A stretch of 64,000 bases of DNA from Rhodospirillales bacterium (GCA_016872535.1 VGZQ01000002.1:9514-73513), one strand, 5' to 3'; shown: positions 18,057 to 27,903, numbered from the stretch's first letter. The notes: generated by a model not told the origin, from the sequence alone. Made by a program: numbers and translations.

Positions 18057-18767
18057 TCAAAACCAGAATCGCACGCCGGCGACGACCGAGCGGTTGTCCG
18101 CCCGGTTCCCCTCTTCGCGCGCGTAGTCGGCGGCCTGGCCGAGCTTCCGCTCCCAATGGAAGCCGACGTAAGGCGCAAATTCGCGGACGATTTCGTAACG
18201 CAAGCGCAGGCCGGCGCTGACTGAATCGACGCCGGAGCCGACGTGACGCTCCTTGACGCTTTGCACCGCCAAATTGATCTCGGCGCTCGGTTGCAGGATC
18301 AATTTCTGGGTGACGAGCCAGTCGGTCTCGCCCTTGAGCCGGGCCGACACCTCGCCCTCATGGCTGACGAAGGCCGCGGCGTCGACCTCGATCATGTATG
18401 GCGCCGTTCCTTGCGCGCCGAACACGGCGAAGGTGCGATCGGGGTCCGGCTTGATGTCCTGGCGCAAACCCACCACCGCGTCGAAAAAATCCGAGACTCG
18501 GCGGCTGTAGAGAAGCTGGAATTCCCCTTTTTCCAGTTTGCCGTCGTTGGGCTTTTCGCCTTCGGCCTTGATTCGAATCTTGTCGTCGTCGGTGCCGATC
18601 CAGCCTTCGGCGTCCCAGGCGAGATTGTCCTTGCCGGTGCCGCTCCGGTATTCGAGCTGCTCGGCCTGAACGAACGTAAATATCTGTCCGGGCTCGGCGG
18701 CATCCACCGGCGACACGGACAAGGGCGCGACGATCACGGCGGCGAGCAAACGGTACATTTTCGTCAT
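18057..18767 (-). CDS. copB: Copper resistance protein B (outer-membrane barrel)
   Basis: EQLEYR, WDAEGWIG.D.DK, QLLYSR, FDAVVGLRQD, GLRLRYEIVREFAPYVG, GVRFWF; ATGA overlap with the copA stop. Confidence 0.93.
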   Translation of the reverse strand: MTKMYRLLAAVIVAPLSVSPVDAAEPGQIFTFVQAEQLEYRSGTGKDNLAWDAEGWIGTDDDKIRIKAEGEKPNDGKLEKGEFQLLYSRRVSDFFDAVVGLRQDIKPDPDRTFAVFGAQGTAPYMIEVDAAAFVSHEGEVSARLKGETDWLVTQKLILQPSAEINLAVQSVKERHVGSGVDSVSAGLRLRYEIVREFAPYVGFHWERKLGQAADYAREEGNRADNRSVVAGVRFWF

Positions 18768-20482
18768 GTGCTCGCCCCCTTCGGCCCAACAATGAAGCGA
18801 GTCATCATCCCCGATGCCATGTGGTACATGAGGTGGCAATGGAACGGCCAATCGCCCGGTTCGTCGGCGGTGAGCAGGGCCGAGACTTCTTGCCCCGGCG
18901 GCACGACGACCACGTGCTTGAGCGGCCGGCGGTCGGTTTGCCCGTTCTCCACCTCGACGAACATCCCGTGCAGGTGCATCGGGTGCGCCATCATGGTTTC
19001 GTTGACGAACTTGATCCGCACCCGTTCGCCGTATTTGACGCGGATCGGTTCTTCCTTGCCGAACGGGCGGCCGTTCAGGTTCCACATGTAGCGATCCATG
19101 ATCCCGGTGAGGCGGACCTCAATCTCCTGGCTCGGTTCGCGCGCGTCCGCGTTCTTAGCCGCCGAACGGAGATCGGCGTAGGCGAGCGCCTTCTGGCCCG
19201 GCGGCGTCGCGGCATCCGCCCAGCCGAATGGCCGCTTGCCGCTGGCGTCTTGGGTCGTTGGCATGGCGCCGTGCCCCATGGCCGAATGGTCCATCCCGGG
19301 CATGGACATCTTGCTGTGGTCCATGCCGGACATGGCGCCGCCTTGGCCCATCGCCCCATGGCCCATCGCCGAGTGATCCATACCGGCATGCGCCGCACCC
19401 ATGTCGGCCATGCTGAGGATGGTGCGCGGGCGCTGTTCGGGGATCGCCCCTTCCATCCCTTCGCGGGGCGCGAGCGTCGCCCGGGCATAGCCCGAACGGT
19501 CGATCGGCTCGGCGAAGACGGTAAAGGCCTTGTCCTCGCGCGGCAGCACGATCACGTCGTAGGTCTCGCCGACGCCGAAGCGGAACTCGTCGACGCGGAC
19601 CGGCTGGACGTTCTGGCCGTCCGCCGCAACCACCGTCATCGGCAAGCCCGGAATCCGCACGTCGAAGAAGCTCATGGCCGAGGCGTTGATGAAGCGCAGC
19701 CTGACCCGCTCGCCCGGCTTGAACAGCGCCGTCCAGTTGTCGCGAGGGCCCTTTCCGTTGACCAGAAAAGCGTAGCCGGTGACGTCGGCAAGATCGGTCG
19801 GGTCCATCCGCATTTCGCCCCATTCGAGGCGGTCCTTGAGCGCGGCGCCGAAGCCGTCGCGGTCCGCGTCGCGGAAAAAGTCGACCAGCGTCCGCTTGCC
19901 CCGGTTGTAATACCCGGCGTTGGCCTTGAGCTTGGCCATCACCCGCATCGGGTCTTCCTGGGTATGGTCGGAAAGCGCCACCACATAGTCGCGGTCGGCG
20001 CGGACGGGATCGCGGCCCCGGGGCTCGATCACGATTCCCCCGTACATGCCGGCCTGCTCCTGCAAGCCGGAATGGCTGTGGTACCAATAGGTGCCGCTCT
20101 GGCGGAGCTTGAAGCGGTAGGTGAAGGTCTCGCCCGGCGGGATCGGAGCAAATCCGTTGAATCCCGGCGCGCCGTCCATGTCGCCGTCGAGCAGCAGCCC
20201 GTGCCAGTGGATCGAGGTCGATTCCTTGAGACGGTTGGTGGCCTGGATGGTCACTTCTTCGCCTTCGCGCCAGCGCAACGTCGGCGCCGGAACCGAACCG
20301 CCCATCATGACAGCGTTGCTCTCGATTCCGTCGACGACGATCCGGCCCGCCTCGACGGCAATCGCGTATTCTTTCGTCGCCGAGGCGAAGCTGATCCGGC
20401 CGGGATAGACGGCGACGAGGCCGGCCGCGCCGGCGAGCTTGAGCGCGTTCCGCCGGGAAAGGCCGTGAAGATCGGTGGACAT
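18764..20482 (-). CDS. copA: Copper resistance multicopper oxidase (Tat-exported)
   Basis: SRRNALK Tat motif, SIHWHG, YWYHSHS, MDHSxM repeats, HPMHLHG, HCHLMYHMASGM. Confidence 0.96.
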   Translation of the reverse strand: MSTDLHGLSRRNALKLAGAAGLVAVYPGRISFASATKEYAIAVEAGRIVVDGIESNAVMMGGSVPAPTLRWREGEEVTIQATNRLKESTSIHWHGLLLDGDMDGAPGFNGFAPIPPGETFTYRFKLRQSGTYWYHSHSGLQEQAGMYGGIVIEPRGRDPVRADRDYVVALSDHTQEDPMRVMAKLKANAGYYNRGKRTLVDFFRDADRDGFGAALKDRLEWGEMRMDPTDLADVTGYAFLVNGKGPRDNWTALFKPGERVRLRFINASAMSFFDVRIPGLPMTVVAADGQNVQPVRVDEFRFGVGETYDVIVLPREDKAFTVFAEPIDRSGYARATLAPREGMEGAIPEQRPRTILSMADMGAAHAGMDHSAMGHGAMGQGGAMSGMDHSKMSMPGMDHSAMGHGAMPTTQDASGKRPFGWADAATPPGQKALAYADLRSAAKNADAREPSQEIEVRLTGIMDRYMWNLNGRPFGKEEPIRVKYGERVRIKFVNETMMAHPMHLHGMFVEVENGQTDRRPLKHVVVVPPGQEVSALLTADEPGDWPFHCHLMYHMASGMMTRFIVGPKGAST

Positions 20483-20496
20483 GGCGCGATCCCTCC

Positions 20497-21042
20497 TCAC
20501 CATCCGCCGCTAAAGTCGAGCTTGCCGACCATGCCCGCCTCGTAATGGCCGGGAATGGTGCAGGCGAATTCGAGTTCTATCGCCTTGGAGAATTTCCAGA
20601 CCAGCTCGGCCTGCTTGCCCGGCTCAACCAGCACGCTGCCGGTTTCCGGGCCGTGGTCGTGCGCGGCCATGCCCATCTTGGCGTGGTCCATCTTCATCAT
20701 GTCCTTGTTGATCCCGGTCGCCGTAATCATGCCGTGGTCCATCATCATCTTCATCATGTCCTGGTGTTTGGCGTGGTCGTTGGGCTGGCCGAGCGCGAAC
20801 TCGTGCAAAAGATCGCCCTTGTTGACGATGACGAAGCGGACCGTCTCGCCCGCCTTCACGGCGACGGTTTCCGGTTCGTAAAGATTGTCCTTCATGATGA
20901 TGGTGACGGTGCGGGTCGTGGACGTGGCTTTGGCCACTTCGCCGAAGGGGTGTTTCTGGGCCGGGCCGGCGAGGGCGGCGCCGGCCCCAAGCGTTATGAG
21001 GCCGAAAACGGCGGCGACGAAACTTGAGCGAATCATATGCAT
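20497..21042 (-). CDS. Cupredoxin (CopI-like) with Met/His-rich insert
   Basis: Signal peptide; LLHEF, HQDMMKMMMDHGM...MMKMDHAKMGMAAHDHG, FACTIPGHYEAGM type-1 copper loop. Confidence 0.92.
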   Translation of the reverse strand: MHMIRSSFVAAVFGLITLGAGAALAGPAQKHPFGEVAKATSTTRTVTIIMKDNLYEPETVAVKAGETVRFVIVNKGDLLHEFALGQPNDHAKHQDMMKMMMDHGMITATGINKDMMKMDHAKMGMAAHDHGPETGSVLVEPGKQAELVWKFSKAIELEFACTIPGHYEAGMVGKLDFSGGW

Positions 21043-21156
21043 GACGCGTGCAATCCTTGTCTGGTGTTGAAGTCGAACGGATGGCGCTCACGCGCGAGCT
21101 GCGGCCCGGCCGTTCAAGCCCGGCACGGCTAAAGACGCGCGAAGAGCGGATTTAGA
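21043..21156 (-). promoter_or_regulatory. 114-nt structured leader, copy A (between uORF stop and cupredoxin ATG)
   Basis: 108/114 identical to 23330-23443 (hand count); contains GAACGG/CCGTTC and GCTC/GAGC nested stems and the SD AAGGA. Confidence 0.8.
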
Positions 21157-21504
21157 TCAGGAAGCGCGCGGAGGGCGCAGCGGCGGCGCGGACGAGCCGA
21201 GCGGAACGAAGGTGTCGGGCGCCAGCACCGAAACGGTGGCTGGCGCGCGGAGGACGGTTCCGGACGGAATCGGCGTCACGGCCGAAAACGAGCAGCCGGG
21301 CGGGCAGCAGCGGTCGATGCCGCCAGCAGAGTTTTCGTCGCACGAACCCAGCAGGGCTTCGGCATCGCTCCCGACGTGCGCGGACGCGGAAACTATCGGC
21401 GAGCCTGCCGTTTCGTGCCCGGGCGCGGCAACGCCGGCCAAGCCCCACAGCAGGGTCGCGGCGACCGCAAAGGCGGAAACGATTTTACGGAACCGGCGCG
21501 ACAC
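21157..21504 (-). CDS. Small exported-type leader ORF 2 (CC-x3-C, C-terminal PPLRPPRAS); CutF/CruR-like candidate
   Basis: GAGGA SD then GTG 21504; MSRRFRKIVSAFAVAATLLWGLAG signal-like N-terminus, DRCCPPGCSF, SSAPPLRPPRAS. Confidence 0.75.
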   Translation of the reverse strand: MSRRFRKIVSAFAVAATLLWGLAGVAAPGHETAGSPIVSASAHVGSDAEALLGSCDENSAGGIDRCCPPGCSFSAVTPIPSGTVLRAPATVSVLAPDTFVPLGSSAPPLRPPRAS

Positions 21505-21668
21505 GCAAATATTTCCTCGGACGTTCCTCGCCCACGAGCGGGCGAGAGGCGTGGATAGCAAAAGCGGATTCTAAAGACAAGCCGAAAAAGGGCCATCTTC
21601 AATCACAAGCGCGAAATCCGTATTCCCGCCAAAAACTGTTTCCCATTGCAAACTCCATGGTCTTCGTC

Positions 21669-23261
21669 TCACGTCCTCACGGCGCGAAGGGTCGCCCAGA
21701 GGGCGGCGGCAAAGCCGAGAACGCCGAGCAGCGGCACGTCGGCATAGTCGCCGAAGACGTGAGGGCCGATGTCGTACTGGAGGAGCAAGGAAGAAGCGAC
21801 GAATAAACCCATCGACACCAGCGCGAACGCCACCCGCCGGCCGCCGCGCTCCACGGCGTCCTCGACGCGATCGATACCGTGAAGACGCAAGCCGAACTCC
21901 GGTCTTCCTCCTTCGCCCTGGAGCCGGTGGAGCCAGGCGCCAAGCAGCGCCGGTAAATCCTCCGCGGTCATTGCGGCTTCGCTCTTCAGCCGCTCCATCT
22001 TGCCGGTGCTCTGCGATTGCCGGAGGGTAGTCTCGAATATCTTTTCGCCCTTGGCCAACAGTTCCTTGACGAGGATGTATTCGGGATCGAGGCTTCGTAC
22101 CGTGCTTTCGATCAGAAACATGGTGCGCAAAAGGACGAGCAGATTAGGCGGAATGGTCACACTTTCGCCGCGCCCGATCCGCAAGATTTGCAGAAAGGCC
22201 TGGGCGATCGACAGATCGTTGAGCGGCAACGCGGCGTAATCGGCCATGATCTCGTCGAAGGCGCGCCGGAATTCCGCGCGATCGACCGCCGCGTCGATCA
22301 CGCCGAGGGCAATCGCCGTGTCGAGCAGCCAAGCCGAGTCTTGATGGGCGAATGCCTGCGTGAACAGCGCAAGATTTCGACGCGTTGCGCGGTCGAGATA
22401 GCCGGTCAGACCGAAATCGTGAAAGCAGATGCGTCCCGAGTTCATGATAAACAAATTGCCCGGGTGCGGATCGCCGTGGAAGACGCCGAGCACGAAGAAC
22501 TGGTGGAGATAGGCGTCAACGAAATTATCGGCCAAGCGCCGTCTGTCTTCGTCGTTAATCGGATCGTCAACGCGGCGGCCACTGCTCATCTCCTGCACCA
22601 GGACTGACTCGGCGCCGAGTCCGTCGATCACTGTCGGTACATGCACCGTCTTCCAATCCTTGAAGGCCTCCTTGAAACGCCGGGCGTTGCGTGCCTCCCG
22701 CCGGAAGTCGGTCTCGTTGCGGAGATTGGTCCAGGTCTCCTCCACCAGGCGAAGCGGGTGGTAGCGGCGGAGACGAGGGGCCAGAAGTTCAGTCGCGCGC
22801 GCGAACATCCGCAGCATGCGCATGTCCCGGCGGATTTGATCCTGAATCCCCGGTCTGCGCACTTTGACGACCACCATCCGTCCGTCGTGGAGGCGTGCTT
22901 TGTGCGCCTGCGCGATGGAAGCGGCGGCGAAGGGGACCGGATCGAATTCCGCAAACAACTCGGCGATCGGCCGGCCGAGCGCCGTTTCGATCTCGCGTAT
23001 CGCCTTCGCGGCGGGAAAAGGATTTACATGCTCATGAAACCGTTGCAGAGCCTTGATGTAGTGGTCCGGCAGCATTTCCTGGTGCAAGCTCAGGATTTGG
23101 CCGAACTTGACGAACGTCGTGCCAAGCCGTTCGAGGGTCACGGCGAATCGCTCCGCCAGCGTCGGCAAACGCCGGGGACGAAACAGGTACAGATAGAGGG
23201 CGTGAACCGCGAAATTCGCCGCCGCGAACCCAACGCGCAGCAACCGGCCGATAAACATCAT
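21669..23261 (-). CDS. ABC1/UbiB/AarF family atypical kinase
   Basis: LERLGTTFVKFGQILS, FAAASIAQAHKA, VVVKVRRPG, DFRREA, VFHGDPHPGNL, HDFG, C-terminal TM helices. Start re-placed at ATG 23261. Confidence 0.9.
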   Translation of the reverse strand: MMFIGRLLRVGFAAANFAVHALYLYLFRPRRLPTLAERFAVTLERLGTTFVKFGQILSLHQEMLPDHYIKALQRFHEHVNPFPAAKAIREIETALGRPIAELFAEFDPVPFAAASIAQAHKARLHDGRMVVVKVRRPGIQDQIRRDMRMLRMFARATELLAPRLRRYHPLRLVEETWTNLRNETDFRREARNARRFKEAFKDWKTVHVPTVIDGLGAESVLVQEMSSGRRVDDPINDEDRRRLADNFVDAYLHQFFVLGVFHGDPHPGNLFIMNSGRICFHDFGLTGYLDRATRRNLALFTQAFAHQDSAWLLDTAIALGVIDAAVDRAEFRRAFDEIMADYAALPLNDLSIAQAFLQILRIGRGESVTIPPNLLVLLRTMFLIESTVRSLDPEYILVKELLAKGEKIFETTLRQSQSTGKMERLKSEAAMTAEDLPALLGAWLHRLQGEGGRPEFGLRLHGIDRVEDAVERGGRRVAFALVSMGLFVASSLLLQYDIGPHVFGDYADVPLLGVLGFAAALWATLRAVRT

Positions 23262-23329
23262 TTCATGGCATCCATGTCTGCAGGGGAAGCATCCGATTGA
23301 AAGGTGAACTTCGAGCGGATCGTACGCAT
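23258..23329 (-). CDS. 23-aa mini-ORF MRTIRSKFTFQSDASPADMDAMK, putative translational coupler
   Basis: ATG at the same position as the cupredoxin ATG in leader copy A; first codons resemble MHMIRSSF; its TGA overlaps the kinase ATG (ATGA). Confidence 0.55.
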   Translation of the reverse strand: MRTIRSKFTFQSDASPADMDAMK

Positions 23330-23443
23330 GACGCGTGCAATCCTTGTCTGGTGTTGAAGTCGAACGGATGGCGCTCGCGCGCGAGCTGCGGCCCGGCCGT
23401 TCAAGCCCGGCGCGGCTCAAGACGCGCGCAAAACGGATTTAGA
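23330..23443 (-). promoter_or_regulatory. 114-nt structured leader, copy B
   Basis: Direct repeat of 21043-21156, same length, 6 substitutions. Confidence 0.8.
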
Positions 23444-23830
23444 TCAGGAAACGCGCGGAGGACGCAAAGGCGGCGCGGATGAGCGGAGCGGAACGAAAGC
23501 GTCCGGCGTCAGGGCTGGAATGCCGGATGATTCGTGAAAAACGATTCCCGAAGGTGCGGCTGTCATCGCCGAAAAGGCGCATTCCGGCGGACAGCAGCGG
23601 TCGAATCCGCCGCCGTAACCGTGGAGGGAATTTCGGTCGCACGAACCCGGGGCGGCGTCGACGACGTGTCCGCCTTGCGCGGACGCAGCGATTCCGCCGG
23701 TCGACGCTATCATCGGCGAACCCGTCATTTCGTGTCCTGGAACAACTGCGCCTGCGAATCCCCAAAGCAAGGTCGCAGTGACCGCGAACATGGAAACGAT
23801 TCGCCGGATTTGGCGCGGCAGACGGATCAA
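23444..23830 (-). CDS. Small exported-type leader ORF 1 (CC-x3-C, C-terminal PPLRPPRVS); paralog of leader ORF 2
   Basis: GGAGAG SD then TTG 23830; RRIVSMFAVTATLLWGFAG, DRCCPPECAF, SSAPPLRPPRVS. Confidence 0.75.
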   Translation of the reverse strand: MIRLPRQIRRIVSMFAVTATLLWGFAGAVVPGHEMTGSPMIASTGGIAASAQGGHVVDAAPGSCDRNSLHGYGGGFDRCCPPECAFSAMTAAPSGIVFHESSGIPALTPDAFVPLRSSAPPLRPPRVS

Positions 23831-23912
23831 CTTTCTCTCCGGGACTTGCCCTCGATCATGAAATGACGGACGTTGCGTTCTGTCAAGCGCGCCCGCGAAG
23901 GACAGCCGCAAG

Positions 23913-24575
23913 ATGAGCAAATTCACCCGCCTCGACGAACGCCTGCACGATTACCTGGTCGCGGTCGGGACGCGCGAGCATCCCGCCCTCGCGCGTCTTC
24001 GCGCCGAAACTGCGACCATGCCCAAGGCGGGCATGCAGATTTCCCCCGATCAGGGGGCGTTCATGCAATTTCTCGTGCGGTCACTCGGCGCGCGGGCGTG
24101 CCTCGAAATCGGCGTGTTCACCGGCTACAGCTCGCTGGCGGTCGCGCTGGCGCTGCCCGCCGACGGGCGGCTCACCGCCCTCGACGCGAACGCCGAATGG
24201 ACCGCCGTCGCCAGGCGCTATTGGGCCGAAGCCGGCGTCGCCGACAAGATCGAGTTTCGCCTCGGCCCGGCGGCCGGCTCCCTCGACGCCCTTCTCGCCG
24301 AAGGTCGCGCCGGAACGTACGACTTCGCCTTCATCGACGCCGACAAGGAAAACTACGAGCCGTACTTCGAGCGCTGCCTCGCGCTCGTGCGTCCGGGCGG
24401 CGTGATCGCCGCCGACAACGTGCTGTGGGACGGCGCGGTGATCGATCCCAAGGATACCGACGCGGATACCGAGGCGATCCGCGCTTTCAACCGCGCCCGC
24501 CACATCGACGAGCGCATCGATCTCTGCCTGGTGCCGATCGCCGACGGGCTTACGCTTGCCCGCAAGCGCGGCTGA
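23913..24575 (+). CDS. O-methyltransferase (Methyltransf_3, caffeoyl-CoA OMT/MdmC-like)
   Basis: MQISPDQG, LEIGVFTGYSSL, YDFAFIDADKENY, GGVIAADNVLWDG, PIADGLTLARK. Confidence 0.93.
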   Translation: MSKFTRLDERLHDYLVAVGTREHPALARLRAETATMPKAGMQISPDQGAFMQFLVRSLGARACLEIGVFTGYSSLAVALALPADGRLTALDANAEWTAVARRYWAEAGVADKIEFRLGPAAGSLDALLAEGRAGTYDFAFIDADKENYEPYFERCLALVRPGGVIAADNVLWDGAVIDPKDTDADTEAIRAFNRARHIDERIDLCLVPIADGLTLARKRG

Positions 24576-24601
24576 TCGCCGAGGATCGCTTAATCACTTG
24601 A

Positions 24602-25603
24602 TCACTTCGGCGCGAATTCGGGAAAGGCGCGCCTCAGGTTGCGCTCGATGCGCTCGCGCACCGGAAGCTCGGGCTCGACCGGGACGAATTCCTGGCCGGT
24701 CATCTGCTCGTAAAGGCGCACGTACTTGGCGCTGAACTCGGCGAGCGTCGCGGGCGGAATTTCGGGGATCGGCTCCTTGTAGGGATCGCAGCGCGCCGCG
24801 ATCCAAAGTCTCAGGAATTCCTTGTCGAGGCTGTCGGGTTCGAGGCCCTGGTCCGCGCGCTCGGGATAGGTGGCGGCGATCCAGTAACGGCTGGAATCGG
24901 GCGTGTGAATTTCGTCGGCGACGCGCAGCCTTCCTTCGCGGTCGAGGCCGAATTCGTACTTGGTGTCGACCAGGATCAACCCTTGCGCGGCGGCGAGATC
25001 CCGCCCGCGCCGGAACAGCGCCATGCCTAAGCGCTCGATCTCGCGCCAGCGATCGGCGGGCACCAGGCCGCGCGCGACGATCTCGGCGGCGGTGATCGGC
25101 ACGTCGTGGGCGGTCGCGCCTTTGTCCGTGGTGGCGCCCTTGGTGGTCGGCGTGATCAGGGTCGCGGACAGGCGCTGGTTCTTGCGCATGCCGTCGGGAA
25201 GCCGGTGGCCGTAAACGACGCGCGCGCCCGTCGCGTATTGGGTCCAGATGCTGGTCGAGGTCGCGCCGGTGAGATAATCGCGCACCACCACCTCGACCGG
25301 GATCATGTCGAGCTTGATCCCGACCGTCACGTTCGGGTCCGGGTAGGCGAGCACGTGGCTCGGGCAGACGTCGGCGGTGGCGTCGAACCAATAGCGCGCC
25401 GTTTGCGTCAGCACTTGGCCCTTGAACGGAACCGCCGCCAACACCTGATCGAACGCCGACTGGCGGTCGGTCGCGATCATGATCCGCCGGCCGTCGGGCA
25501 GGTCGTAGGAATCGCGTACCTTGCCGCGCTGGAAATTGGGCAGCCACGGAAAGTGAGCGTCGGTCAGACAGCGGCCGAGGCTGTTCAAGTAATCGATCAC
25601 CAT
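24602..25603 (-). CDS. purC: SAICAR synthase, long (Ade1/plant-like) family
   Basis: RGKVRD, TDRQSAFD, PFKGQVL, IPVEVVVRDYLTG, LVDTKYEFG, ADEIHTPDSSRYW, LDKEFLR. Confidence 0.92.
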   Translation of the reverse strand: MVIDYLNSLGRCLTDAHFPWLPNFQRGKVRDSYDLPDGRRIMIATDRQSAFDQVLAAVPFKGQVLTQTARYWFDATADVCPSHVLAYPDPNVTVGIKLDMIPVEVVVRDYLTGATSTSIWTQYATGARVVYGHRLPDGMRKNQRLSATLITPTTKGATTDKGATAHDVPITAAEIVARGLVPADRWREIERLGMALFRRGRDLAAAQGLILVDTKYEFGLDREGRLRVADEIHTPDSSRYWIAATYPERADQGLEPDSLDKEFLRLWIAARCDPYKEPIPEIPPATLAEFSAKYVRLYEQMTGQEFVPVEPELPVRERIERNLRRAFPEFAPK

Positions 25604-25667
25604 GCGCGCTCCCGAACCTATTTCCCCTGTTGCCCCGCTCGGGCCCGACCGCTAGCTTCCGCCGATC

Positions 25668-26897
25668 ATGCCCGCTTTGACCCGCACGCTCGCGGCTCGC
25701 GTGTTCGTGCCTTTCGCGGTCGGCTATTTCCTTTCCTACCTGGGCCGGGTTGTCAACGCCGTGCTGGCGCCGCGCCTGATGGCCGAATTCGATCTCGGCG
25801 CGGCCGATCTCGGCTTTTTGACCAGCGTCTATTTCCTGGCCTTCGCCGCGTTCCAACTGCCGCTCGGCATCCTGCTCGACCGCTTCGGGCCGAAGCGGGT
25901 CGAAGCGGCGTTGATCCTGGTCGCGGCCCTCGGCGCCTTCGGATTTGGGATGGCGGGCGGGCTGGCCGGGCTCGTTTCGGGTCGCGCCCTGATGGGGCTC
26001 GGCGTTTCCGCTTGCCTGGTGGCGCCCTTCACCGCCTACCGCATCTGGTTTCCGGCCGCACGGGTGCCGCTCGCCAACGGCCTCCTGATGTCGTGCGGCG
26101 GCCTCGGCGCCATCGCCGGCACCGTGCCGGTCGAGGTGACGCTCGGATTCGTCGGCTGGCGCGGCGTGCTGATGCTTTATGCGCTGGCCATCGTCGCCGC
26201 CGCGGCCCTGATCTACCTTGTCGTTCCCGACGACGGCCGAACCGGCAAGCCGCCGCCGCTCGCCCGCCAGTTGCGCGAGCTGGTCGGCATCCTGCGCGAT
26301 CCCTTGTTCGTGCGCGTGGTCGGCTCGACCGCGTTGATCCAGGGATCGTTCATCGGCCTGCAGAGCCTGTGGGTCGGCCCGTGGCTCGCGGACGTCGCCG
26401 GGCTCAAGGGCCCGGCCGTCGCCGATTATCTGCTCTGGATCGCGCTCGGCATGACCTCGGGCTACGCCGCCATGGGCGCGATCGCCGACCGGCTGGCGCG
26501 CCTCGGCATCGCCGCGCACACGGTCGCGCTGGCGGCGACCGTCGGCCTGCTCGCGACCCAGGGCGCCATCGTCCTGCTGCCGCCCGCCGAGGCGGCGCCG
26601 CTCTGGGTCCTGTTCACGTTCCTCGGCGCATCGAACGTGTTGTGGTATTCGGCGTTCTACCAGAGCTTTCCGCTCGAGATGGCCGGCCGCGCCGCGACCG
26701 CGTTCAACGTCTCGGTTTTTCTCGGAACCTTCGCCTGCCAGTGGGGCGTCGGCGTGGTGGTCGATTTCTGGCCGCGCGGCGCGGACGGATCGTATCCGCC
26801 GGAAGCCTATCGTGCCGCGTTCGCGGCGCTGCTCGCGGCCCAAACCGCCGGACTTGCCTGGTACATGCTCAAACGCCGGGCGAAATTTCGCACCTGA
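25668..26897 (+). CDS. MFS transporter
   Basis: About 12 hydrophobic segments; motif A GILLDRFGPKRV. Confidence 0.9.
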   Translation: MPALTRTLAARVFVPFAVGYFLSYLGRVVNAVLAPRLMAEFDLGAADLGFLTSVYFLAFAAFQLPLGILLDRFGPKRVEAALILVAALGAFGFGMAGGLAGLVSGRALMGLGVSACLVAPFTAYRIWFPAARVPLANGLLMSCGGLGAIAGTVPVEVTLGFVGWRGVLMLYALAIVAAAALIYLVVPDDGRTGKPPPLARQLRELVGILRDPLFVRVVGSTALIQGSFIGLQSLWVGPWLADVAGLKGPAVADYLLWIALGMTSGYAAMGAIADRLARLGIAAHTVALAATVGLLATQGAIVLLPPAEAAPLWVLFTFLGASNVLWYSAFYQSFPLEMAGRAATAFNVSVFLGTFACQWGVGVVVDFWPRGADGSYPPEAYRAAFAALLAAQTAGLAWYMLKRRAKFRT

Positions 26898-26898
26898 A

Positions 26899-27903
26899 TC
26901 AGGGCAGCGTCAGCGGCGCGGTCGCCGGTCCGTCCGCCTCGAAGCCCTGGACCCAAAGCGTGCCGCGCCGAGCGTTGGCGACCACCGCCGCCCGCGTGGT
27001 GCGGTTGAGGATCGGCGCGGTCAGCCATGCGAAGCCGTCGGGCGCGCGGCGATGGATTTCGGCCAGCGTTCGCGCGCGCTTGACGCTGTCGGCCCCCCGC
27101 GCGCGGCCCGGCCGGTGGAATCCCTGCCAATGGTTGGCGGAACACGCGGGCGATTCGCGCACGCTCGCGCCCGTTTCGGTGCGCTCGATCACGCAGCCTT
27201 GGTCCGGCTCCGCGCCGCTCAGGACGAAGATCGCGGGCAGGCACATGGGCGTTTCGACGAGCTGGGCGCGTGCTTCGGCGTAAGTACGGCAGGTATCGAA
27301 CACGCGCCGCAACAGATGCGCGGGCGGAAGCTGGCCGCGCGCCGCGAGGCGGATGCGCGTGACCGCCCAATCGAGCCAACAGGAAGGCGTGTAGCGCGGC
27401 ATCGGCGCCTGATTGAGCGCGGCGGCGAATCGGCCGGGCGCCATCGCGGTGGCGATGCCGGCGAATCCGGGCCACGTGACGTTCAGGTAATCCCCGGCCG
27501 CGCCCGACTGCCGGGCGACCACCAGGGCGCGGCCGAGACCGTCGAGCGGCCAGTCGAGGGTGCGCAGCATCCGGTTGCCGGCACCCGAAGGATCGGGCGC
27601 GACGCCGCTGGTGCAGGTCCATTCGTAGGAGAGGTTGAGAAGATGCGCGCCCGCGCGCCCCAAGCGCGCGGCGACCGTGTCGATCTCCGGCAGGTAGGGA
27701 TTGTTCGCGCGCATCAGCCATTGTCGCGAAAGCGCGTCGCCGAGGCGAAGCGGGATCCGGCCGTAGCGCGTTTCGGCCGAGGCGAGAATCAGGGCCAACC
27801 GCTCGGGCGCGGAGGCGGCGAGCGCGTCGGCGCCGCCGCCGCCGATATCGAAAACCGGAATCGGTGCCGGAAGTTTGGAGACGAAAGCGAAACTGTCGTG
27901 CAT
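26899..27903 (-). CDS. Ntn-hydrolase, acid ceramidase / C45 acyltransferase-like
   Basis: LNLSYEWT-CTS (candidate autocleavage Cys nucleophile), RTLDWP, WPGFAG..TAMAPGRFAAALNQ, ANHW. Confidence 0.7.
   Translation of the reverse strand: MHDSFAFVSKLPAPIPVFDIGGGGADALAASAPERLALILASAETRYGRIPLRLGDALSRQWLMRANNPYLPEIDTVAARLGRAGAHLLNLSYEWTCTSGVAPDPSGAGNRMLRTLDWPLDGLGRALVVARQSGAAGDYLNVTWPGFAGIATAMAPGRFAAALNQAPMPRYTPSCWLDWAVTRIRLAARGQLPPAHLLRRVFDTCRTYAEARAQLVETPMCLPAIFVLSGAEPDQGCVIERTETGASVRESPACSANHWQGFHRPGRARGADSVKRARTLAEIHRRAPDGFAWLTAPILNRTTRAAVVANARRGTLWVQGFEADGPATAPLTLP

Follow-up and report, generated by a model that had tools for sequence, protein, structure and literature searches.

A 23-codon open reading frame (ORF) at the 5' end of an ABC1-family kinase gene in a Rhodospirillales bacterium appears to be a junction scar, formed when the kinase gene was placed within a copper-resistance (cop) operon that encodes a CopL-like small protein, CopI, CopA and CopB. 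This short ORF, referred to here as the stub, lies in a stretch of 64,000 nt (GCA_016872535.1 VGZQ01000002.1:9514-73513; hereafter the window, with positions counted from its first letter), in which the features of the cop operon are all on the minus strand and an O-methyltransferase gene is on the plus strand. A segment consisting of a small ORF and a leader occurs twice, as copy A in front of copI and as copy B in front of the kinase. The scar would comprise eight copI-type codons that have kept their copI-type leader and ribosome-binding site, and then 15 unrelated junction codons. Ribosomes initiating at the copI-type site would translate the stub and halt on a TGA that overlaps the kinase ATG, where ATGATG offers both -4 and -1 geometries. 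Translation of the kinase would most likely depend on reinitiation by the ribosomes terminating at the stub, and we favor this termination-reinitiation route with moderate confidence. Transcription of the kinase would most likely begin at the cop promoter, ahead of small ORF B, so that the kinase would be co-produced with the copper-resistance proteins and the unit would be copper-responsive.

On the minus strand, the ATG at 23329-23327 opens the 23-codon ORF MRTIRSKFTFQSDASPADMDAMK, which ends with a TGA at 23260-23258; the position and translation of this mini-ORF agree with those given in the original prediction, which had described it from the sequence as a relic of the cupredoxin N-terminus. 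The kinase frame at 23261 reads ATG ATG TTT ATC (MMFIGRLLR...). The stop codon of the stub and the start codon of the kinase overlap in ATGA (23261-23258), as had been predicted, and the second kinase ATG at 23258-23256 adds a TGATG geometry, the whole forming ATGATG at 23261-23256. The two ORFs run in the same direction and possess the stop/start overlap (ATGA or TGATG) that characterizes overlapping coupled pairs. The resident copI start, ATGCATATGATTCGCTCAAGTTTC at 21042-21019, has a single match in the window, with 0 expected. The first eight codons of the stub match this start at 18 of 24 bases, bearing out the predicted resemblance, and match the copI starts of other lineages at 16-18 of 24. 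The homology between the stub and copI stops after codon 8, where a 30-nt window drops to 9 matches out of 30, and neither the window nor the fetched loci contain a homologue of the 44-nt junction from codon 8 to the kinase ATG (23262-23305).

The initiation signals of the two ORFs differ. The stub shares AAGGA, spacer and ATG with copI, which is the sequence basis for regarding it as a candidate for translation; the identical AAGGA motifs, 11 nt before the ATG, pair with the anti-Shine-Dalgarno (anti-SD) sequence at -5.2 kcal/mol in both cases. Either kinase ATG shows a pairing energy of -3.1 kcal/mol, against a mean of -3.26 kcal/mol for random 22-mers from the window, and the kinase has no recognizable SD signal of its own. 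This absence, together with the presence of the copI signal in front of the stub, points to termination-reinitiation as the most likely route of kinase translation. Of 14 ATGA/TGATG gene pairs examined with reporters by Huber et al. (2019, PMC6728339), 13 proved to be strictly coupled. Related kinases are also called with a 4-nt overlap onto the upstream gene elsewhere, in the loci L017 and L009-L011, and copA and copB in the operon of the window overlap by 4 nt as well.

The best-surviving alternative is that the stub is a neutral leftover of recombination, the kinase starting by itself at ATG 23261 or 23258, independently of an SD signal, in an A/U-rich and weakly structured region, and the overlap being a coincidence of frame. 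We consider this account possible and on the unlikely side. Several observations speak for it and weigh against coupling. The 5' end of the kinase itself supplies the TGA, through its start codon and the A of the second codon, and the closest homologues, which have no stub, start with ATGATT (L007) and GTGATC (L008). For an ORF entering in a random frame 15 codons (45 nt) upstream, the chance of an ATGA ending is approximately (1/3) x 0.71 = 0.24; as the kinase brings the TGA with it, the overlap would arise by chance at about this frequency and provides no evidence of selection. The L008 homologue likewise has neither an SD signal nor an overlapping upstream gene call. In the predicted fold, a weak, A/U-rich hairpin holds both kinase start codons in its loop, an arrangement that could permit SD-independent initiation. 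The stub occurs in a single, essentially clonal population: neither the syntenic relatives (L012-L016, L021 and L023) nor the closest kinase homologues have it, and its peptide thus lacks the conservation among related genomes expected of a leader peptide. Its beginning, MRTIRSKF, is also unlike every copI N-terminus seen (MHMIRSSF, MHIIRSSF, MHMIRPSF, MHTIRPNF and MRTILSRL). The contigs of the population are all identical, leaving no variation on which constraint could be tested. Furthermore, coupling is read from the geometry of the overlap, the SD spacing of the stub and copI is long (11 nt) and the pairing moderate, and a scan of 20400-24100 yielded no promoter-like (sigma-70-like) site and terminator-like sites at chance frequency. 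A weak terminator-like hairpin is located at 21629-21611, in the spacer between the kinase and small ORF A.

On the other side, the stub possesses the exact initiation region of copI, which must be well translated, so ribosomes very likely reach the TGA in any case. The strict coupling of almost all reporter-tested ATGA/TGATG pairs and the background-level anti-SD pairing at the kinase likewise argue against an independent start. Termination-reinitiation from the stub is the reading that we retain on this balance. The further claim that the stub had been kept as a translational coupler is not supported: with the TGA intrinsic to the kinase, a chance overlap at about 0.24, an unconserved peptide and a distribution limited to one population, there is no sign of selection for this role.

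The repeat that contains the stub is far beyond chance. Positions 21019-21318 and 23306-23605 are 82% identical over 300 nt, and a second block of 59 nt also matches. The homology starts near the small ORF starts (about 21505 and 23825) and ends sharply after codon 8 of copI and the stub. In 30-nt windows, the identity amounts to 60-80% through most of the upstream small ORF (lower in gapped windows) and climbs to 83-100% from the 3' end of the small ORF through the leader. Six independent metagenome contigs (JGI, ENA and Logan) agree with the window at every position that they cover within 20942-24846; both copies are spanned by four contigs, and a fifth ends within the first codons of copI. 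This agreement rules out an assembly artefact. The limits of a short-k (k=31-type) Logan contig coincide with the boundaries of the exact repeat, where 31-mers become shared. Another contig (L002) has 39 differences from the window; all fall in 24847-27154, and none in the 3.9 kb of 20942-24846 that hold the methyltransferase gene, copy B, the kinase and copy A. This clean 3.9 kb could reflect a recent sweep or a transfer of the segment.

Comparison with syntenic loci shows that the kinase is an insertion. It is absent from L012, L013-L016, L021 and L023 (a Rhodospirillales metagenome-assembled genome, MAG), each of which contains the methyltransferase gene (or another neighbor), one small ORF, one leader of ~115 nt and then copI directly. 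In L012, the flanking genes are 97-100% identical to those of the window. The gene order small ORF, CopI, CopA and CopB is common to the window, L012, L013, L015 and L023, while L014 and L021 show the first genes before the contigs end. The locus of the closest kinase homologue (L007, 74% identity) has no stub; there, the kinase lies between the 3' end of a Met-rich PG_binding gene and a decayed 3' fragment of copB. In this contig (L007:1-225 and L007:1823-2070), the kinase directly follows the Met-rich PG_binding 3' end and is succeeded by the copB 3' fragment and a short relic of a Met-rich gene end. The kinase is thus flanked by duplicated pieces of the cop operon in two lineages, which hints at a recurrent insertion mechanism.

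Sequence divergence across the inserted region is mosaic. The window is 95-100% identical to L012 up to the methyltransferase start (~23911) and again from ~21060 (copI), and divergent between these points. The intergenic region at 23828-23912 shows ~85% identity to L013 and 57-82% to L012. At the nucleotide level, small ORF A is 90% identical to its L012 counterpart (86% in amino acids) and small ORF B is 85% identical to that of L013, while A and B share 73%; the synonymous divergence (dS) is 0.77 between A and B and 0.21 between A and L012. The two leaders, in contrast, diverge by only 1-5%. They are 95% identical, and 99% in the last 80 nt, and either is 65-80% identical to all others, the nearest being L022 (75-80%); for leader B, the identity to other lineages amounts to 73-80%. 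Relative to the L012 leader, their identity is 71-77% (71% for leader A), although ORF A and copI, on either side of leader A, share 90-97% with L012. Over its first 24 nt, the resident copI matches L012 at 96%, and copy B matches everything compared at 67-75%. The GC content at third codon positions is 0.64 in small ORF B and 0.765 in the kinase, against 0.85-0.92 in host genes, and the spacer following the kinase has a GC content of 0.51 and no homologue in the window or any fetched locus. The low values of copy B and the kinase suggest import, and ORF B, the kinase and the spacer may accordingly be of foreign origin.

The simplest reading of this pattern is that another lineage supplied the segment running from ORF B to the spacer, with leader, stub and kinase in between, or that a composite haplotype was imported whole. 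The leaders were most probably homogenized by a short gene-conversion tract. Conversion would most simply have run from B to A, since the flanks of leader A are both L012-like and the leader itself is not. If so, the resident copI, if anything, now carries the leader of the kinase copy, and the kinase would not be a simple borrower of the resident leader.

The original prediction had proposed a different history, a duplication of the upstream ORF, leader and copI start in front of the kinase, which is taken here as a recent in-place event on the resident copy, with later preservation by selection as a regulatory cassette. The repeat is genuinely present, the leader copies are 95-99% identical even at positions that vary among lineages, and the conservation of the leader boxes and the AAGGA region in seven lineages suggests function. 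One part of the proposal stands, since a relic of a copI-type start does sit on a copI-type leader before the kinase. The notion of a recent copy of the resident cassette conflicts with the discordant segments: ORF B is closer to the L013 allele than to ORF A, from which it is separated by a dS of 0.77, whereas ORF A is closest to L012; the first 24 nt of the stub are equally close to the resident copI (75%) and to L021 (75%); leader A is unlike the L012 leader despite flanks that are 90-100% identical; and ORF B, the kinase and the spacer are atypical in composition. One recent duplication cannot give three adjacent segments with three different trees, and we regard this history as improbable, preferring import followed by gene conversion.

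The kinase protein matches PF03109 (ABC1) with 228 bits, against a gathering cut-off of 22.9, and retains all invariant columns of an 18-sequence alignment, as expected for a member of the family. The UbiB equivalog models gave 333 bits against a cut-off of 487.6 (TIGR01982) and 260 against 667 (NF003404). Judged by these scores, the protein is best described as an ABC1-family paralogue that is not demonstrably UbiB. Its alignment with 17 homologues (51-74% identity to the window protein) places the kinase start at 23261 or, equally compatible, at 23258: the N-termini of 14 of the 17 lie at, or a few residues from, the column of MMFIGRLLR, the three longer calls (P0004, P0018 and P0038) carry extensions unlike each other and unlike that of the window, and the gene calls of the population start the kinase at 23261 on all six contigs. 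A 583-aa kinase beginning at the in-frame TTG 23420, a mechanically derived ORF that would make the stub irrelevant and that the original prediction had named as a challenge to itself, deserves almost no credence and is ruled out by the homologue N-termini: the frame does stay open back to 23420, but long spurious frames are expected at 67% GC, the 53 extra residues have no counterpart in any of the 17 homologues, they are the leader read in another frame (the copy A leader yields a similar out-of-frame peptide), and none of the six contigs is called from there. No kinase homologues at 75-99% identity were present in a collection of 5.8 billion proteins, and a single-protein scan of GTDB genomes gave no match.

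The neighbors of related kinases include cop relics and a Met-rich protein (L007), DUF2933 and ICMT genes with a Met-rich protein (L009-L011 and L017), and an efflux system followed by a heavy-metal P-type ATPase (L018). This recurrence suggests that the kinase subfamily is linked to metal-stress loci. Our literature search for a connection between bacterial ABC1 kinases and copper operons found nothing relevant. More speculatively, the copI-type leader, ribosome-binding site and eight-codon stub might act as a portable module for regulated translation on a horizontally acquired kinase, matched to the resident leader by gene conversion, with the kinase co-induced with copper resistance. We hold this idea to be doubtful. 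It fits the placement of the subfamily beside cop genes, Met-rich periplasmic proteins, DUF2933/ICMT genes and heavy-metal ATPases, and, if true, it would establish a functional connection between a UbiB-family atypical kinase and periplasmic copper stress. In any case, the neighborhoods offer a testable hint at a role of an ABC1/UbiB-like kinase subfamily in copper or metal stress.

The element labeled an upstream ORF in the original prediction proves to be a real protein gene of 115-127 aa, weakly CopL-like and under purifying selection, with dN/dS values all near 0.3 (0.31 for A and 0.27 for B). The family is defined by an N-terminal hydrophobic segment, an invariant His, a DRCCPPGCSF motif and a C-terminal APPLRPPRxS, which is also the most conserved stretch in the small ORF DNA. 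Small ORF B is intact and retains the invariant residues H, DRCCPP, C, F and RPPR. Five population contigs cover copy B, and on four of these small ORF B is uncalled, a 47-aa ORF in another frame (23439-23582) being called in its place; consequently, existing annotations do not show the second gene copy. With 6 representatives among 1.84 billion clusters, the family is very rare. Against the CopL model NF033807, the window proteins gave no hit (ORF A not even at E-values up to 10) and so stay below the family cut-off; weak hits were obtained for 4 of 12 family members (best E-value 2.6e-4), and one member matches DUF2946. The small ORF is located immediately upstream of, and co-oriented with, a multicopper-oxidase operon, which is the position of CopL. 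Searches of metagenome contigs with a leader 22-mer and with the small-ORF profile gave no match, and the profile retrieved one locus from genome contigs, that of the Rhodospirillales MAG (L023). A 530-aa ORF adjoining the small ORF in this MAG was considered as a kinase and turned out to encode an FGase/GNAT protein. No relatives of the small ORF were found beside kinase homologues elsewhere.

In the leaders, the complementary, GC-rich boxes TTCGCGCGC and GCGCGCGAA stand ~45 nt apart around a variable inner hairpin, and they are kept in seven lineages, including a relative with 43% identity. They may form an RNA stem or serve as a site for protein binding. The consensus of the seven lineages contains a conserved outer stem with zero compensatory pairs, the single sequences fold no better than shuffles (z-scores of -0.44 and +0.63), and a Rfam search of 20000-25000 at E-values up to 1 returned nothing relevant in the leader. 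With neither covariation, nor a Rfam match, nor an unusual folding energy, a structured RNA is unproven. The protein encoded downstream of leader A contains the Pfam domains Cupredoxin_1 and Copper-bind. It scores 205.8 bits (cut-off 280) and 82.8 bits (cut-off 200) against the NCBIfam CopI models NF051440 and NF047895, respectively, below both curated cut-offs, with a strong CopI model E-value of 4e-61. We classify it from these scores as a CopI-like protein rather than an equivalog.

Table 1. Positions of the cop operon features and their neighbors in the window.
Feature	Position	Strand	Description
O-methyltransferase gene	23913-24575	+	Divergent neighbor of small ORF B
Intergenic region, O-methyltransferase gene/small ORF B	23828-23912	-	Presumed cop operon promoter (from its location); same position in L012 and L013
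Small ORF B	23444-23827	-	127 aa, TTG start; CopL-like, putatively secreted or membrane-anchored Cys/His protein; the "uORF" of copy B in the original prediction
Leader B	23330-23443	-	114 nt, from small ORF B stop to stub ATG; AAGGA Shine-Dalgarno 11 nt before ATG
Stub codons 1-8 (MRTIRSKF)	23306-23329	-	Relic of a copI-type signal-peptide start
Complete stub ORF	23258-23329	-	23 codons and a TGA overlapping the kinase start (ATGATG)
ABC1/UbiB-family atypical kinase	21669-23261	-	530 aa; hydrophobic helices at C-terminus; inserted in cop operon
Spacer, kinase stop to small ORF A	21505-21668	-	164 nt, 51% GC
Small ORF A	21157-21504	-	115 aa, GTG start; allele of resident type
Leader A	21043-21156	-	114 nt; precedes copI
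CopI-like cupredoxin (copI)	20497-21042	-	181 aa; intact gene mirrored by the stub start
CopA multicopper oxidase	18764-20482	-	TIGR01480, 717 bits
CopB	18057-18770	-	PF05275, 284 bits

In the downstream part of the operon (Table 1), a strong SD signal precedes the copA ATG at 20482, and the gene of a Met-rich protein with a peptidoglycan-binding domain comes after CopB. In the population contig L001, 14 nt of copA (window 19769-19782) are absent, and the gene is split in the gene calls of that assembly; the gap represents a frameshift variant of the population or, alternatively, a mistake in assembly. Beyond the methyltransferase gene, two genes with a SAICAR-synthase domain (PF01259), encoding 333 aa and 254 aa, occur within ~6 kb (window 24602-25603 and L001:1-598), and both are conserved in L012.

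As a mechanism, the present case would be a further instance of known translational coupling, which is textbook material and leaves current understanding unchanged. The recombination history is instructive, as two divergent small-ORF alleles flanking near-identical leaders illustrate, on a small scale, probable short-tract gene conversion inside an operon.

Among known systems, CopL is the positional counterpart of the small ORF. Xanthomonas copL has been connected with the control of copAB at the levels of transcription and translation (cited in PMC8073393). The likeness lies in a small Cys/His ORF directly upstream of a multicopper-oxidase operon, and the analogy is one of position. The window differs in having the CopI cupredoxin between the small ORF and copA, in two proteins that miss the CopL model, and in the rarity of the family. 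For the overlap itself, the closest parallels are the reporter-tested ATGA/TGATG pairs (PMC6728339), which likewise consist of ORFs in the same direction with a TGA/ATG overlap and an available TGATG; in the window, the downstream gene has no SD signal of its own. The upstream partner here differs from those of the tested pairs in being a 23-codon remnant with no conserved product, and its coupling to the kinase is a predicted one. Regulatory leader peptides of the ermCL, TnaC and SecM type are conserved and act by programmed stalling. The stub resembles them as a short ORF in the 5' region of a gene, and departs from them in that its sequence is not conserved, it lacks homologues beyond a single population and it shows no evident stalling motif. 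Synthetic bicistronic designs, attributed to Mutalik et al. in 2013, reportedly use a short leader ORF with its own ribosome-binding site that ends on the start of the target gene. In these designs, as would hold for the stub, a functionless short ORF with a proven initiation region delivers ribosomes to an overlapping start; the stub is natural, derives from a recombination junction and bears no sign of selection for such a role. If coupling is true, the stub would be a natural counterpart of the engineered designs, in which an incoming gene with no ribosome-binding site has been plugged into a stress operon through a few codons of the gene that it displaced.

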